Assembly: GCA_001775995.1 (NCBI GenBank) | Contig: MEZH01000007.1 | Location: 123,761-187,760 of the forward strand | DNA: 64,000 bases | Direction: 5' to 3' | Origin: Candidatus Bathyarchaeota archaeon RBG_16_48_13 | GTDB lineage: Archaea > Thermoproteota > Bathyarchaeia > RBG-16-48-13 | In this document: positions 11,231-52,330 of the stretch, one piece after another | Layout of the letters: the number at the start of each line of letters is the position of its first letter | Position numbering within the stretch: the first letter of the stretch is position 1 | Translations under genes and position numbers: made by a program | The notes under the pieces: model-generated | Databases searched by the model: none | Told to the model about the DNA's origin: nothing | Seen by the model: only the letters and a program-made list of their open reading frames with translations

Positions 11231-11449
11231 TCACGCAGACGGCGTTTCCGCACCTTCTTCCTTCATCTCAATCCTCTTGAGTCGTGATATGTAGCCAGCC
11301 ACTTTGTTTCTGATCGTTTTTGTGGAACCGATTGCCAGTTCCTCGACAAGACGTTTATTCGTATCGAAATCGGTCGTAAACTTATCATGATGTTTGTTCA
11401 TCAAATCTTTTGCCAAGTTCTTAACGGATTCTGTACGGACTTTTCCCAA
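11231..11449 (-). CDS. rps17e: 30S ribosomal protein S17e
   Basis: 'MGKVRTESVKNLAKDLMNKHHDKFTTDFDTNKRLV' matches the S17e N-terminus. Length 72 aa. Confidence 0.85.
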   Translation of the reverse strand: MGKVRTESVKNLAKDLMNKHHDKFTTDFDTNKRLVEELAIGSTKTIRNKVAGYISRLKRIEMKEEGAETPSA

Positions 11450-11553
11450 TCGAAAACCTCAGAGTCTAAGTTTTTGTAGAATCATTCCTCATTTGAATAG
11501 CCCTTTTTAATGTTTGCCTTTTTATAAGGATTGGCTTAACTTATGTACAGAAT

Positions 11554-12342
11554 TCAAAGAAAGAACTCTTGAAAGTTTTCGAATACCTGAGAAAGGACCT
11601 CTTCAGCATTTCTTTGCTTTATTCTAACTATGGTGTCAAGAACATCTGGAATGAATGAAGGAGAGGTTAATCTCCCTTTGAATGGCCCTTTGTAAGGTAC
11701 AGGACCGTCCGTCTCTGTCAATATGTGATTGAGAGGCATTGTGGCCACTAGATCTTGGAGATATCTTGCGTAGAGAATTGATGGGCCAACAGATACATAA
11801 TAGCCTCTTTCTATTATCTCATGTAGAGAATCTTGGGGGCCACTATACCAATGAAGAAGGACTTTGGGAATATTGTAAGAAGAGAGAACCTTCAAGACTT
11901 CTGTGGCGGATCCCCTGGAATGCACTATGATCGGAAGATCATGAGATTCCGCAGCCCTCAGCATCTCATTGAATACGGGGAACTGATTTTTGTTTACCTC
12001 GCCTTCATTGAGTCTTCTATCTAGCCCCACTTCTCCTATAGCGACAATCCCACTCAGGTTCTGCTCGATCAAGCTCAAGGTTTTGTCAAGTTCCTGTTCG
12101 TCGAGGGAGGATACCCTGCTTGGGTGGATACCTATTGCTGCATATGTTCGGGGTGAATACTTGCTGGCAATCTGTAATGTGTCAAGACTGGTTTGGTAAT
12201 TTTCAGCGCATATGACGATAGCTGAGACTCCCGCAGTTTCCGCATCCCTCAGAACAGCTTCAATTGTGCTCTCATAGAGTGGATCATAAAGATGAATATG
12301 AACATCGACGTACCTTTTCTGAACACCGTAATCCAAGACCAA
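11554..12342 (-). CDS. tatD: TatD-family metal-dependent hydrolase/DNase
   Basis: 'VDVHIHL' N-terminal metal motif. The His/Asp/Glu pattern ('HSRGS', 'ETDGP') is typical of TatD TIM-barrel hydrolases. Confidence 0.8.
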   Translation of the reverse strand: MVLDYGVQKRYVDVHIHLYDPLYESTIEAVLRDAETAGVSAIVICAENYQTSLDTLQIASKYSPRTYAAIGIHPSRVSSLDEQELDKTLSLIEQNLSGIVAIGEVGLDRRLNEGEVNKNQFPVFNEMLRAAESHDLPIIVHSRGSATEVLKVLSSYNIPKVLLHWYSGPQDSLHEIIERGYYVSVGPSILYARYLQDLVATMPLNHILTETDGPVPYKGPFKGRLTSPSFIPDVLDTIVRIKQRNAEEVLSQVFENFQEFFL

Positions 12343-12455
12343 AGCTCCTACGTCTTAATCTTTTATGGTCCATTAAGACGGAATAATTGAAAGGTGGCAA
12401 TATTTTAGACTTTTTCCTCAAAAGAGAGTAGTACGCGCTTATTTGTCCCATTAAC

Positions 12456-12467
12456 CTTAAATAATAT
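12456..12467 (+). promoter_or_regulatory. Putative TATA box (cttaaataatat) about 30-38 nt upstream of the histone start codon
   Basis: An AT-rich TATA-like element sits at the expected spacing for an archaeal promoter with a short leader. Confidence 0.3.
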
Positions 12468-12494
12468 CTTAACAGAGAAAAATATGGGATTTTC

Positions 12495-12716
12495 ATGGGA
12501 GAAGAAGATTTGCAGTTAGCTCCTATGCACCGGATAATAAAAAAGGCAGGAGCCAAAAGGGTTAGCGAAGATGGCGCGGAAGAGTTGAGAAAGGTCCTTG
12601 AAAGGGTTGGAATAAAGATCTCCAAGGAAGCGATAGATTTCGCAAATCATGCCAAGCGAAAGACCGTGAAGTCTGAAGACATAGAAATCGCAGCCAAGAA
12701 AGTCTTGAAAGAATAG
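12495..12716 (+). CDS. Archaeal histone (HMf-like histone fold)
   Basis: 'LAPMHRIIKKAGAKRVSEDGAEELRKVLE...ANHAKRKTVKSEDIEIAAKK' aligns with HMfB 'IAPIGRIIKDAGAERVSDDA...ARHAGRKTIKAEDIELA'. Confidence 0.8.
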   Translation: MGEEDLQLAPMHRIIKKAGAKRVSEDGAEELRKVLERVGIKISKEAIDFANHAKRKTVKSEDIEIAAKKVLKE

Positions 12717-12845
12717 AACGATTAATTCTAATATTATTTTCACTTTTTATCCCTCATGTTCGATACATTATGAATAGGTAGTTCTGATACCAACATTGCT
12801 TAACCGTAATGCTCATTAATGTGTTCAATTCTTTCCCAAATCTGT

Positions 12846-12963
12846 GCTCCGGTAGTATAGCTCGGTCAAGTATTTTGGCCTCTCGTAATATGTTGGAGAA
12901 AGCCAGAAACGCGGGTTCAAAAGCGCGGAGTGAAACCGGTTGAAAATCCCGCCCGGAGCACCA
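12846..12963 (+). tRNA. tRNA-Glu(CUC) with two BHB introns (12886..12900 at 37/38; 12922..12946 at 59/60), CCA encoded
   Basis: Acceptor GCTCCGG/CCGGAGC, discriminator A, CCA. Anticodon stem TTGGC/GCCAG with loop C-T-CTC-G[intron]A. T-stem GCGGG/CCCGC with T-loop TTCAAA[intron]T. Both introns fold into bulge-helix-bulge motifs (central helices CUCU/GGAG and UUCA/UGAA, with each cut 2 nt after the helix). The mature RNA is 78 nt including CCA. Confidence 0.6.
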
Positions 12964-13009
12964 ATTCCAATATGCTAGCATCAACCATTGCCATGATAGA
13001 GGTATTGAA

Positions 13010-13606
13010 ATGGAGATGAAGGGTAAGCCCATAATTGTCGTCACTGGAACTCCAGGTGTCGGAAAGACAGCCGTGTCGAGTTATTTGGCAGCAGGACTGA
13101 AAGCAGTTCATTTGGATCTGGCAGAGATAGCAAAAAGAAGTGAATTCTATATCGCCAAAGATCCTCAAAGGGAGACATTCATAGTTGACATTGAAAGACT
13201 GACCGAAAATGTGGAAAGCCGCCTTAAGAATGCCAGTTCGAGAATCGTAGTGTCTGGGCACTACGCTATGGACGTTATCTCACCGAGACATAATGTTAAG
13301 GTCTTTGTCTTAAGGTGCGACCCTCAAGAACTAAAAAAGCGATTGGAAAAAAAGGGGTTTGGTCCTAGGAAAGTCGCAGAAAACGTCCAGGCCGAAATCC
13401 TCGACATCTGTTTCTTCGACGCAGCAGGAGTCTACGGAGAAGACAATGTCTACCAAATTGATGTCACTAAGAAAAACATCGTGGAGGTGTGTGCCGAAAT
13501 CCAAGATTTGCTGGAAAACAGAGTAGCGCCTGAGAAAAAGGTCGATTGGTTGGGAGAATTAGAGGCGTTAGGAGTCTTGGATGACTTTTTCCGATTAAAA
13601 AGATGA
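13010..13606 (+). CDS. Adenylate kinase isoenzyme 6 / Fap7-like P-loop NTPase
   Basis: 'IIVVTGTPGVGKTAV' Walker A at the extreme N-terminus. The ~190-aa size is typical of archaeal AK6/Fap7. Confidence 0.65.
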   Translation: MEMKGKPIIVVTGTPGVGKTAVSSYLAAGLKAVHLDLAEIAKRSEFYIAKDPQRETFIVDIERLTENVESRLKNASSRIVVSGHYAMDVISPRHNVKVFVLRCDPQELKKRLEKKGFGPRKVAENVQAEILDICFFDAAGVYGEDNVYQIDVTKKNIVEVCAEIQDLLENRVAPEKKVDWLGELEALGVLDDFFRLKR

Positions 13607-13610
13607 TGTT

Positions 13611-13832
13611 ATGTACTTTATCTTACCTTGCTACGGGTGTGGAAATCTCCTAATAGTAGAGGAGGAGCAGAAGACTAAGAGGTGCCCTTACTGCAATTGC
13701 CTTCTAAATCTGAGCAAGACCAGAATTCTCAGAAGGGTGTCAACATCTAGAGAAGCATCGAGGATAGTGAGAGAGATGAAATTGGCAAAGGGATGCGTCT
13801 CTGATAAAGAGAATCTCATCGAAAAGGAGTAA
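13611..13832 (+). CDS. Small zinc-ribbon protein (CxxC...CxxC)
   Basis: Paired 'CYGC' and 'CPYC' motifs. The gene sits 5 nt downstream of the Fap7-like gene. Confidence 0.4.
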   Translation: MYFILPCYGCGNLLIVEEEQKTKRCPYCNCLLNLSKTRILRRVSTSREASRIVREMKLAKGCVSDKENLIEKE

Positions 13833-13913
13833 GAACAGAGATTATTACTGTGTTTATTAAGGTCTTCTTGACTATTGAATCTACAGCTAGCCTAGAAACA
13901 GGAGCCATACTGC

Positions 13914-14339
13914 ATGTCCGCAATGGTAGGAAGGAAGTTTTTTGATGAACTGGCCGCGCAGATTCAGAAGAGAGTCAATTTAATCACAATAAATGCTAAG
14001 AACTATTCGGGAATTCTTGTTGGTTATGACCAAGAGTCTATGAGTGTATGTCTTGCTGACGCCAAGGACGATGCGGGAAGAATATTCCAAAGACTATTCA
14101 TCAATGGAAGAATCATTGCTGAGATACAATCAATGGAAAAAGCATTTGATCTCAAAGGCTTGGCTGACAGACTTGAGAAGTACTTCCCGAAGATGGTGAA
14201 GCTTTACGAAGAGGGCAACGTCATAATGGTCATGAACAAGATAAGGGTGGGTGAGAAAGGTATAATAGAAGGAAGCGGGCCTGCGGCTGAGCGCGTCCAA
14301 AGAGTCTATGAGGAATTCCTGAAGGAACAAACCAAGTAA
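13914..14339 (+). CDS. Sm-like (LSm) domain protein with C-terminal extension (SmAP3-like)
   Basis: Sm1-like 'ITINAKNYSGILVGYDQESMSVCLADA' and Sm2-like 'RLFINGRIIAEI' segments, followed by a ~70-aa C-terminal domain. Confidence 0.5.
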   Translation: MSAMVGRKFFDELAAQIQKRVNLITINAKNYSGILVGYDQESMSVCLADAKDDAGRIFQRLFINGRIIAEIQSMEKAFDLKGLADRLEKYFPKMVKLYEEGNVIMVMNKIRVGEKGIIEGSGPAAERVQRVYEEFLKEQTK

Positions 14340-14367
14340 TCAATGACCCAAGAGATTTCTAACTTTA

Positions 14368-16041
14368 TTGGCAGATGCCTTTTTTGATCTTCTCTTTTGG
14401 GTAGTATTCAGAGGTTCGGAATTGTCTTTTGAAATAGCAGAAAGGGATTTGGCAGGAAGAATCGGCAAACTCAGAACCAAAAGCGGCGAAGTGGAAACCC
14501 CTGCCCTGCTTCCAGTGATAAATCCCTTACTTCAGCCAATCTCCCCCAAGATCCTAAAGGATAGATTCGCGTTCAAAGCGCTGATCACTAATGCGTACAT
14601 AATTTCAAAGAACTTAAAGGAAGAAGCTGTTAGTCTCGGAATCCATAGGATTCTTGATTTCGACCGCGTGATAATGACTGACTCGGGAGCATATCAGAAT
14701 CTCATTTACGGAAAAGTGGACACGACAGTGGAGGAGATAACAAGATTCCAAGAGGACATAGGGACCGACATAGCTGTGATACTAGATGTGCCAACTGGTT
14801 GGAAGACCACCAGAGAAAAAGCTGCTTGGTCAGTAGAGGAAACATTGAGACGCGCCCAAAGAACCATCAAGATAAGAAATGACAACGGAATCTTGTGGGT
14901 TGGCCCGATACAAGGTGGCCGCTATCTGGAACTCGTCACATATTCTGCGAAGAGAATGGGTGAGTTGCCCTTCGATATTTACGCTTTAGGAAGCCCCACT
15001 AAGATCATGGAGCAGTATTTTTTTGATATTCTTGTGGATATGATTTTTGTAACAAAGACAAACTTGCCATTAGATCGACCACTTCACCTTTTTGGAGCGG
15101 GTCATCCGTTGGTTTTCGCCATGGCTGTGGCGTTGGGATGCGATCTTTTTGACTCTGCTGCGTATGCACTTTATGCACGAAATGGAAGATATATGACAGA
15201 GTATGGAACAAGTAGAATCGAAAAGTTGGAATATTTGCCGTGCTCGTGTTCAATATGTTCAAAATATAGCCCTAGCGAAATAAGAGATATGTTTCCGAAG
15301 GATAGGGAAAAGGCATTAGCTGAACACAACATATACCAATGTCAAGCTGAGATACGGCGTATAAAACAATCCATAGTTGAGGGGCGCCTATGGGAACTCC
15401 TTGAGTCGAGGGCAAGAAGTCATCCGACCCTGCTGCAGGCATTTCGAAAATTCGACAAATACTCGACGTATCTTGAGAAAAACACCCCTACTTCAAAAAG
15501 AAGAGGGCTCTTCTATTTTGATTCAAGTGGAATTTCGAGACCTGAGATCGTTCGCCATAGAAGACAGATCTCGGAAAAATATGTGACGCCAGAAGAGAGG
15601 AAGTTACTGTTGTTGCTTCCTCAGACCCTGAATAAGCCGTTTCACACTACAAACGAGTATGGAAGAGTCTTCAAAACCCTTCGGAGTATTGGGAAGCAAG
15701 AGTACGAGAAGACAGAGATATGCGCTTATGCTGTCCCTTTTGGTGTAGTACCTCTCGAGATTGATGAAATCTACCCCTTGTCCCAGTTCGAGGCGACTTC
15801 TCCCTTTGATGAAGAAAGTGTCAAATATGTTTGTAGCCAAGTGAAGAGCTACATATCGAGCAGAAATTTTACGACGGTCCTATTACACTACGATAGACAG
15901 TGGGGAGCGAATTTGCTGGAGGCTTGTCGCAAGGCCTGTAAACAGACCGGAAAAGACCTTCTGATTAGCTACAGAGGAAAAAGACCTTGGAGCCGCAAAG
16001 CCTTCGAGAAATTGGAAGAGGCCTTAAAAAGCATCAAATAG
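14368..16041 (+). CDS. tgtA: Archaeosine tRNA-guanine transglycosylase (ArcTGT)
   Basis: TGT catalytic-core motifs ('IMTDSGAYQ', 'DIAVILDVPTG', 'LFGAGHP') and the zinc motif 'CSCSICSKY...' are present. The 557-aa length fits ArcTGT. The C-terminus does not look like a PUA domain. Confidence 0.75.
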   Translation: MADAFFDLLFWVVFRGSELSFEIAERDLAGRIGKLRTKSGEVETPALLPVINPLLQPISPKILKDRFAFKALITNAYIISKNLKEEAVSLGIHRILDFDRVIMTDSGAYQNLIYGKVDTTVEEITRFQEDIGTDIAVILDVPTGWKTTREKAAWSVEETLRRAQRTIKIRNDNGILWVGPIQGGRYLELVTYSAKRMGELPFDIYALGSPTKIMEQYFFDILVDMIFVTKTNLPLDRPLHLFGAGHPLVFAMAVALGCDLFDSAAYALYARNGRYMTEYGTSRIEKLEYLPCSCSICSKYSPSEIRDMFPKDREKALAEHNIYQCQAEIRRIKQSIVEGRLWELLESRARSHPTLLQAFRKFDKYSTYLEKNTPTSKRRGLFYFDSSGISRPEIVRHRRQISEKYVTPEERKLLLLLPQTLNKPFHTTNEYGRVFKTLRSIGKQEYEKTEICAYAVPFGVVPLEIDEIYPLSQFEATSPFDEESVKYVCSQVKSYISSRNFTTVLLHYDRQWGANLLEACRKACKQTGKDLLISYRGKRPWSRKAFEKLEEALKSIK

Positions 16042-51022: not shown

Positions 51023-51130
51023 TGGCGCCGGGAGTGGGATTTGAACCCACGTGCCCCGGAGGGGGCACAGGCTTTCCAGGCTTGAGCTGTTAACTTTTAT
51101 CTGCTCCCTACCAGACTAGGAGACCCCGGC
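51023..51130 (-). tRNA. tRNA-Ser(GGA), class II, with 19-nt BHB intron at 29/30 (51082..51100), CCA encoded
   Basis: Acceptor GCCGGGG/TCCCGGC (G7-U wobble), discriminator G. D-stem is 3 bp with an 11-nt D-loop TAGTCTGGTAG. The spliced anticodon stem is CAGGC/GCCTG with loop CTGGAAA. A 17-nt variable-arm hairpin is present, and the T-arm is GTGGGTTCAAATCCCAC. The intron BHB has central helix GAGC/GCUC with each cut 2 nt downstream. Confidence 0.6.
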
Positions 51131-51257: not shown

Positions 51258-52293
51258 TCAGCCTTTGTCGTTTTCAGTTTTGCGCGTCTGCCACATCCTG
51301 GGATAGGTTCCAGGTGACATCAGCACCCTCTCTGATTTGGCCGCTATTCCATGATCAAAGTTTAGGATATCATCAGTCGCCATGGCGGCTTTCGCGAGCG
51401 CAACAACTTCGCCCTTCTGAGTAAAGAGCGCAACTTCATCGTTAGCCTTTATATCGCTTTCCAAACTCACCACGCCTGGGACAGCGAGACTTGCCCCATG
51501 GCAGATGGCATCCACTGCAGAATCTCTCAGATAGATCTTGGGTATGAATTTCAAGCAATCTTCCATTGGCCGAACTATGTGTCTCACCTCTTCCTCGTTT
51601 CCTTCCTTCAACCACTTCGAGCAGGCATCTGAAAGGGTCTGCAGTGTAGTGAGAGAACGGTCTTCCACGAAGGGGCCAGTTCTTGTCCTTCGGAGTTCTC
51701 TCATATGAGCGCCGCATCCTAGAACTTCCCCGATATCGTAGCATATCTTCCGAATATACGTGCCTCCTTGACAACTCGTATGAAACAAGACGTGGTTCTG
51801 CGATATCTCCAGAACCTCCAAGCTGTAAATAGTCCTTATTCTGACTTCTCTTTTGACAGAAGAGCGAACGGGAGGCTTCTGATATATTGGTCCGACAAAC
51901 TCTTTGAAGATTCTCCTTATAGCTTCCTCAGATGCCAAGCCATGGAGCCTCATTACACAAACATATTCTTTTCCCGTAAGAAGAAGAGACTGAAGACTTT
52001 TCGTAGCCTCCTCTAAGGCTATCGGTAAGACGCCAGATACGTTGGGGTTTCCTCGACCTTCCCTAGATCTCTAAGGTCCCACCGTGTCCGGCGCGTTCGA
52101 TATTCATAATCCGTTTAACCCAAGCAACAACCTCATGGCTTGTAGGCCCCGGAGGTTTATCCAAATTTATTACACCATACCTGAGGTGGTTTCGAAAAGA
52201 TCTATTCTCAGGCGTACAACCATACTTTGGATCGGTCTCCTCAGATGCCTTAGCCAGGAGGCTGCGCGTGATCTCCCAAGGGGGAGTTGCCAA
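51258..52293 (-). CDS. cbf5: H/ACA snoRNP pseudouridine synthase Cbf5 (TruB family + PUA), interrupted by a 22-nt BHB mRNA intron; join(complement(52071..52293),complement(51258..52048))
   Basis: Exon 1 ends '...INLDKPPGPTSHEVVAWVKRIMNIERAGHGGTL'. Exon 2 continues '(D)PNVSGVLPIALEEATK...KEYVCVMRLHG...YQKPP...' in a different frame. Removing 52049..52070 restores the catalytic 'GHGGTLDPNVSG' motif and a 337-aa protein. Confidence 0.75.
52049..52070 (-). other. Predicted bulge-helix-bulge mRNA intron within cbf5 (AGAUCUAGGGAAGGUCGAGGAA)
   Basis: Fold: exon GGG / CCUU / AG|A / GAUC-loop-GGUC / GAGG / AA|A / CCC exon. This gives two 3-nt bulges separated by a 4-bp helix, with each cut after the second bulge nucleotide. 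Confidence 0.65.
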
Positions 52294-52330
52294 AAACTAT
52301 CCTCCAAATCTCTTATTTTCAGTTTTCAAG

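Follow-up and report, generated by a model that had tools for sequence, protein, structure and literature searches.

Does the stretch at 12846..12963 on the plus strand encode a working tRNA, or can it merely be made to resemble one by cutting pieces out of it? The first-pass annotation had described a tRNA-Glu(CUC) gene of 118 nt, with a perfect acceptor stem and an encoded CCA, from which one canonical intron (37/38) and one T-loop intron (59/60) would have to be removed to leave a 75-nt cloverleaf with the anticodon CUC. We assessed this proposal within the window, by which we mean the whole 64-kb stretch of DNA that was analysed, and against related loci in other genomes. The stretch is confirmed as a genuine archaeal tRNA-Glu gene with two short introns, and the coordinates are right to the single base. 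We estimate the probability at roughly 0.9 that it is the gene for a working pre-tRNA-Glu(CUC) in a Bathyarchaeia-like member of the Thermoproteota, with both introns spliced via BHB motifs, a reading in which we infer transcription, cleavage, ligation and the type of enzyme.

Three exons and their detection

The gene is complete, comprising three exons, two introns and the encoded CCA, and it was delimited by ARAGORN on the spliced form, a blind BHB scan and a covariance model (R1). Its five parts, all on the plus strand, read in order GCTCCGGTAGTATAGCTCGGTCAAGTATTTTGGCCTCTCG, taatatgttggagaa, AGCCAGAAACGCGGGTTCAAA, agcgcggagtgaaaccggttgaaaa and TCCCGCCCGGAGCACCA. Exon 1 (12846..12885) corresponds to tRNA positions 1-37 according to the cloverleaf and its pair list; it provides the 5' strand of the acceptor stem, the D-arm, the 5' strand of the anticodon stem and the anticodon loop as far as G37, and it contains the anticodon CUC at 12882-12884. 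Intron 1 (UAAUAUGUUGGAGAA, 12886..12900) is 15 nt long and occupies the canonical 37/38 position. Exon 2 (12901..12921, positions 38-59) supplies A38, the 3' strand of the anticodon stem, a 4-nt variable region, the 5' strand of the T-stem and the T-loop nucleotides UUCAAA, after which the 25 nt of intron 2 (AGCGCGGAGUGAAACCGGUUGAAAA, 12922..12946) interrupt the T-loop between positions 59 and 60. Exon 3 (12947..12963, positions 60-76) completes the molecule with U60, the 3' strands of the T-stem and acceptor stem, the discriminator A73 and the CCA at 12961-12963. The acceptor stem (12846-12852 with 12953-12959) consists of seven Watson-Crick pairs out of seven, followed directly by A73 and CCA, which bears out the perfect stem and encoded CCA of the original description.

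Deletion of both segments in silico leaves 78 nt (75 plus CCA) that ARAGORN identifies as tRNA-Glu(ctc) with a normal cloverleaf, in agreement with the product and anticodon first proposed; together with the R1 match described below, this supports the tRNA-Glu(CUC) identity. The stems of the spliced 78-mer measure 7 bp (acceptor), 4 bp (D), 5 bp (anticodon) and 5 bp (T) in the ARAGORN model, and the anticodon loop has 7 nt. Two G.U pairs in the D stem are kept in relatives, and the nucleotides engaged in tertiary contacts are present, namely U8, A14, the GG of the D-loop (G18G19) and, after splicing, a T-loop of UUCAAAU. When just one of the segments is deleted the ARAGORN call is absent or wrong; with the T-loop intron alone removed, for example, ARAGORN -i misplaces the canonical intron and calls Ser(aga). 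The three exons are colinear and contiguous inside the 118 nt, and a split or permuted tRNA gene was rejected on that ground. Group I and group II introns were also rejected, 15 and 25 nt being far too short, as was a C/D-box guide RNA within an intron, again for its length.

Standard tools do not recognise the gene in its genomic form. ARAGORN with default settings reported zero tRNAs for the entire 64-kb window, and on the unspliced tRNA-Glu region the options -i, -i0,60 and -ps90 gave either no call or spurious calls. Rfam at its gathering threshold produced no match in the whole window, RF00005 included, and a search of 12780..13030 at E<=10 returned noise only (CRISPR-DR9, P31 and SAM-SAH, all far below threshold). 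The missing RF00005 match in genomic DNA is explained by the 40 nt of introns that interrupt the model; neither ARAGORN nor Rfam models non-canonical introns. The first-pass annotation had named silence from tRNA search tools as evidence against a tRNA at this site; ARAGORN (default and -i) and Rfam are indeed silent, whereas a BHB-aware scan and R1 are not.

That scan, similar in design to SPLITS, collected strict BHB candidates on both strands (4/4 central pairs with at most one G.U, at least three exon-helix pairs, introns of 11-60 nt), removed one or two neighbouring candidates at a time and passed the resulting constructs to ARAGORN. Applied to the real window, it generated about 4,100 BHB candidates and about 11,900 constructs, from which two genes emerged, the tRNA-Glu and a tRNA-Ser(GGA). 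The tRNA-Glu boundaries fell at 12885/12886, 12900/12901, 12921/12922 and 12946/12947, exactly as proposed. R1, built from 12 two-intron relatives with the window left out, aligned to 12846..12963 over its full length (model positions 1-114, 105.7 bits, E 6.8e-21), and its other match in the window was the tRNA-Ser gene alone (21 bits). Free deletion of segments might make even a random sequence look like a tRNA, and this reading can point to the approximately 12,000 constructs made per window and to the 15 dinucleotide-preserving shuffles, which yielded 2 positives in total (0.13 per window), neither of them a tRNA-Glu. It is effectively refuted by the E-value obtained with R1 in combination with the 111 comparable stretches found elsewhere, the synteny and the covariation reported below, and we regard so fortuitous a resemblance as extremely improbable.

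Splice motifs and proposed processing

The two introns differ in the form of their splice motifs. The central helix of intron 1 (BHB score 4/6/2) joins CUCU at 12880-12883 to GGAG at 12895-12898 through all four possible pairs (C-G, U-A, C-G and U.G), with bulges at 12884-12886 and 12899-12901. Its outer helix, on the intron side, is limited to 2 bp around a UAUG loop (A87-U94 and A88-U93, by the last two digits of the coordinates), so that the motif is relaxed and BHL-like and a broad-specificity enzyme is needed; this relaxed BHB is a refinement of the first-pass reading. Intron 2 (BHB score 4/5/2) has a central helix of four Watson-Crick pairs between UUCA at 12916-12919 and UGAA at 12941-12944, with bulges at 12920-12922 and 12945-12947. 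In a constrained fold it also possesses a 5-bp helix of its own (G23-U40, C24-G39, C26-G38, G27-C37 and G28-C36, numbered in the same way) with G25 bulged and a loop of AGUGAAA, making it a proper hBHBh' motif. The exon-side helices are the anticodon stem for intron 1 and the T stem for intron 2, of 5-6 bp, and the cut in both introns falls symmetrically after the second nucleotide of each 3-nt bulge. The geometry originally described, with 4-bp helices of CUCU/GGAG and UUCA/UGAA and splice sites 2 nt beyond them, holds for both introns, and their placement at 37/38 and 59/60 is bounded by BHBs that the blind scan located independently of the proposal. Because of runs of A, four placements of intron 2 (56/57 to 59/60) would give an identical product, of which 59/60 alone conforms to the BHB rule.

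Minimum-free-energy (MFE) folding of the isolated precursor (-40.5 kcal/mol) leaves out the central helix of the T-arm BHB, and a fold constrained to contain both BHBs (-34.1 kcal/mol) is less stable by 6.4 kcal/mol. We consider this weak negative evidence, or uninformative, since the energy model penalises 4-bp helices flanked by bulges. The same fold, the weakness of the UUCA/UGAA helix with its three A-U pairs and the ability of the insert to form its own hairpin could nevertheless be taken to mean that only the 37/38 intron is spliced, and that the mature RNA keeps the 25-nt insert at 59/60 in the form of an expansion hairpin. A working tRNA needs tertiary contacts between its D-loop and T-loop, and these would be blocked if U54, U55 and C56 were paired with the insert. 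Retention also sits poorly with the comparative data: in dozens of species the 3' end of the insert stays complementary to UUCR with a 2-nt spacer as the remainder varies, and this conserved complementarity is a substrate requirement of EndA for which a passive hairpin has no need. In related archaea, moreover, T-arm introns are regarded as spliced (PMC3082918, PMC4090602). On balance we judge a retained T-loop insert to be very improbable and favour the removal of both introns.

Processing of the precursor would follow the standard mechanism, with EndA acting at two independent BHBs and ligation afterwards. A transcript of about 118 nt would fold so that each intron forms a BHB with the exon nucleotides preceding it, in the anticodon arm for the 37/38 intron and in the T-arm for the 59/60 intron. 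EndA, the archaeal RNA-splicing endonuclease, which is expected here to be of the broad-specificity (alpha-beta)2 type, would cut past the second bulge nucleotide and free introns of 15 nt and 25 nt, and an RtcB-type ligase would then join the three exons into a 78-nt tRNA carrying its encoded CCA end. As the BHBs are located in separate arms they can form simultaneously, and no order of splicing is obligatory.

The (alpha-beta)2 EndA of A. pernix cleaves introns at non-standard positions as well as BHL motifs in vitro (PMC3241643), and an (alpha-beta)2 EndA removes both the canonical and the D-loop intron of the Methanopyrus kandleri pre-tRNA-Glu(UUC) when assayed in vitro (PMC5829648). The M. 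kandleri precursor resembles ours in pairing a canonical with a non-canonical intron in a tRNA-Glu, but its second intron is in the D-loop (20b/21) with an HBh' motif, its anticodon is UUC and its host is euryarchaeal. Position 59/60 is listed among the non-canonical tRNA intron positions (PMC4090602), and both T-arm introns and multi-intron tRNAs occur in Ca. Caldiarchaeum (PMC3082918). As many as three introns can occur in a single archaeal tRNA gene, chiefly among Crenarchaeota and Thaumarchaeota (PMC8450103), in agreement with the earlier statement that multiple or non-canonical tRNA introns are a mark of Thermoproteota and related TACK lineages. Such genes are picked up by SPLITS and by tRNAscan-SE 2.0, which uses an iterative search allowing up to three introns, with separate BHB models for Crenarchaeota/Euryarchaeota and for Thaumarchaeota (PMC8450103). 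Known multi-intron archaeal tRNA genes share with the present one a canonical 37/38 intron accompanied by a non-canonical intron, BHB junctions and a TACK/Thermoproteota host; they differ in having been described in Thermoproteales, Sulfolobales and Thaumarchaeota, whereas the gene reported here belongs to an uncultured Bathyarchaeia-like lineage. Multi-intron archaeal tRNA genes and non-canonical BHB introns were reportedly treated by Marck and Grosjean in 2003 and by Sugahara et al. in 2007 and 2008. In the literature collection that was searched, no paper on tRNA introns of Bathyarchaeia turned up.

Relatives, synteny and the T-loop intron

Species-representative genomes were scanned for a tRNA-Glu acceptor stem combined with an insert of 8-38 nt after GGTTCRAA. 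The 111 stretches found represent 107 distinct genes with a T-loop insert, every one of which is called tRNA-Glu (CUC or UUC) by ARAGORN after in-silico splicing. Their hosts are mainly Bathyarchaeia and Nitrososphaeria, with a few Aenigmatarchaeota, Hadarchaeota, Woesearchaeota, Methanosarcinales and Atabeyarchaeia. The combination of 37/38 and 59/60 introns is shared by about 16 of the scanned genes, and in other Bathyarchaeia the D-arm or D-loop, not 37/38, houses the second intron. Relative to the window gene, exons are 83-94% identical and introns 42-55% identical, leaving aside the 3' ends that are constrained by the BHB. The T-intron helix averages 3.1 bp across the 107 genes as compared with 0.6 bp in shuffled introns, and the 82 genes with at least three of the four central pairs contain 42 distinct arm sequences. 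We also aligned 12 two-intron relatives, with the window excluded, and evaluated this alignment (A1) against the cloverleaf with two BHBs; 99.3% of structure cells pair, a figure that falls to 35-50% once the pairing partners are shifted by 1-3 columns. Compensatory changes affect all four pairs of the T-intron helix, with both sides changed among the 12 relatives, and pairs of the anticodon, D and T stems covary too.

The closest relatives are two-intron tRNA-Glu(CUC) genes like that of the window in three Bathyarchaeia MAGs (L011, JAWCOP010000031.1; L026, JAPWUR010000004.1; L101, CALIRQ010000013.1). Their exons are 94% identical to those of the window gene, their first intron is likewise 15 nt long at 37/38 with a different sequence, their 59/60 intron ends in CUGAAAA or UUGAAAA, and their flanks match (histone upstream; AAA_18 kinase, Lsm and arcTGT downstream). 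They differ in intron sequence (42-60% identity), in the length of the T-loop intron (18-19 nt, compared with 25 nt in the window gene) and in their neighbouring proteins, which are merely 40-57% identical to those of the window and thus make the window organism a distant relative of the three. In Nitrososphaeria the tRNA-Glu insert occupies the same T-loop and affects the CUC and UUC isoacceptors alike, but it is mostly the sole intron of the gene. Twenty-five genes of Nitrososphaera type (e.g. L004, L008, L012 and L024) have inserts of 30-36 nt that fail the 59/60 BHB rule, with one of four central pairs, and fit 58/59 with the same product (4/4 pairs, GUUC/GGAC, and an exon helix of 2 bp); this motif is relaxed and distinct from the Bathyarchaeia type.

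Two contigs with bacterial labels (L033, DASPWZ010000044.1, Candidatus Dormiibacterota bacterium; L059, JAJPJY010000147.1, bacterium) also contain an archaeal two-intron tRNA-Glu gene with Lsm, arcTGT and AAA_18 neighbours, and these labels are probably due to bin contamination or mislabelling.

By Pfam labels, the tRNA-Glu gene of the window is preceded by PfkB, TatD, S17e and histone genes and followed by an AAA_18 kinase, DUF1922, Lsm and arcTGT. The order from S17e to arcTGT (11231..16041) recurs in over 30 loci of Bathyarchaeia whose proteins are 30-57% identical to those of the window (tblastn). The loci are therefore orthologous, and the organism of the window can be placed as a distant, Bathyarchaeia-like member of the Thermoproteota, the phylum in which GTDB places the Bathyarchaeia. 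The suggestion in the first-pass annotation that the introns give a clue to lineage proved sound, in that the relatives sharing both architecture and neighbourhood with the window gene are Bathyarchaeia. An identical locus occurs in NCBI MAG GCA_035256105.1; this MAG and one ENA assembly both contain the downstream protein in exactly the same form, and public gene calls treat the tRNA interval as intergenic. Two minus-strand ORFs that overlap the gene (12754..13044 and 12917..13261) were judged not to be real genes, the interval being intergenic in those calls. A putative TATA-like A/T box (tcattaatgt, 12813..12822, plus strand), read from the sequence, has its centre some 28-30 nt before the start of the gene, and orthologues have an A/T-rich box at the same distance. 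Downstream, the ATG of the AAA_18 kinase begins 46 nt past the 3' end of the tRNA, and no oligo-T terminator was seen in the gap (12964..13009).

The lack of an evident downstream terminator, like the failure of standard tools to recognise the gene, is what might be expected if two insertions had accumulated in a decaying, no longer functional tRNA pseudogene. Such decay is very improbable given a spliced product with perfect stems, a canonical T-loop and D-loop and a CCA end, two insertions that are each precisely bounded by a BHB, and compensatory changes in the intron helix. Gene and introns are moreover conserved at the syntenic position in many species, with exons 83-94% identical.

An insert was a search condition of the genome scan, whose results therefore do not reveal how widely the intron is present; we accordingly took a further sample anchored on the Lsm gene. 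It consists of 80 metagenome loci fetched by this neighbour alone, 55 of them with at least 1.5 kb of upstream DNA. A syntenic tRNA-Glu gene was found in 23 of the 55, and 22 of these 23 have a T-loop insert. The syntenic tRNA-Glu(CUC) gene of locus L152 (3024-3160, 137 nt in total) has an intact T-loop (GGGTTCAAATCCC) and large insertions in the D region, demonstrating that not every member of the clade has the 59/60 intron. In the remaining 32 of 55 loci, motifs and R1 revealed no tRNA-Glu upstream of Lsm; either synteny is broken in these loci or the gene is too disrupted for both methods. The syntenic tRNA-Glu(CUC) genes of L121, L123, L124, L132, L153, L156, L159, L167, L171, L192, L193, L119 and L122 measure 125-135 nt, the first eleven lying about 1 kb upstream of Lsm. 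With boundaries placed by eye, these genes appear to carry three introns, in the D-arm, at 37/38 and at 59/60.

Further introns in the window and what they imply

The second gene recovered by the blind scan, a tRNA-Ser(GGA) of 108 nt including CCA (51023..51130, minus strand; R1 21 bits), is interrupted by a strict BHB intron of 19 nt (51082..51100, minus strand) that falls near position 29/30, within the 5' half of the anticodon stem. It was missed by default ARAGORN and by Rfam. About 130 nt upstream of it on the same strand is a homologue of cbf5 (pseudouridine synthase; ~51258..52296, minus strand) that is split in two frames by an intron at 52049..52070. The unspliced frame meets a stop at codon 77, and removal of 22 nt (AGATCTAGGGAAGGTCGAGGAA; 52070..52049, minus strand) restores a 338-codon Cbf5 ORF that continues through the AGHGGTLDPNVSG motif. 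The junction is BHB-like, with central pairing of CCUU/GAGG, an intron helix of GAUC/GGUC and an exon helix of GGG/CCC beyond an A.C mismatch, and a direct test of the 22-nt candidate was positive. We take this intron to correspond to the known crenarchaeal cbf5 pre-mRNA intron, and its recovery accords with the earlier remark that the tRNA-Glu introns fit an intron in cbf5. The window accordingly holds four BHB introns in total (a pair in tRNA-Glu and single ones in tRNA-Ser and the cbf5 mRNA), and those in tRNA-Ser and cbf5 argue for an active splicing system of broad specificity.

Both multi-intron tRNAs and the 59/60 position have been catalogued before, and this gene is a further example of a widespread feature that leaves the known picture of tRNA splicing unchanged. 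Its main value is practical, in exposing an annotation blind spot in a lineage that has received little study. Unless a BHB-aware tool is used for annotation, genomes of this lineage will seem to lack tRNA-Glu(CUC) and tRNA-Ser(GGA), and the invisibility of the gene to ARAGORN and the Rfam tRNA model distorts estimates of the tRNA complement and completeness of MAGs. The four BHB introns also mark the organism as a Thermoproteota/TACK archaeon, presumably with an active broad-specificity splicing endonuclease.

Within Bathyarchaeia, the T-loop intron of tRNA-Glu persists while the second intron shifts between 37/38, the D-arm and the D-loop, and this pairing of a fixed and a mobile intron provides useful data on the gain, loss and transposition of tRNA introns. 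The presence of the insert in 22 of the 23 syntenic genes from the Lsm-anchored sample, which is unbiased for the intron, in both CUC and UUC isoacceptors and in several phyla, could be read as a sign that the 59/60 intron is ancient and inherited, older than the split between Bathyarchaeia and Nitrososphaeria, maybe common to Atabeyarchaeia (Asgard) and some DPANN, and kept by selection as the second intron moved. We advance this as a tentative and rather unlikely history. Repeated independent gain is equally compatible with the data, as the site readily forms a BHB, UUCA needing only a UGAA partner. If the T-loop intron is nonetheless ancient, its persistence would imply a function, possibly in gating T-loop modification or folding until splicing has occurred, or in shielding the T-arm from integrases that target tRNA genes.
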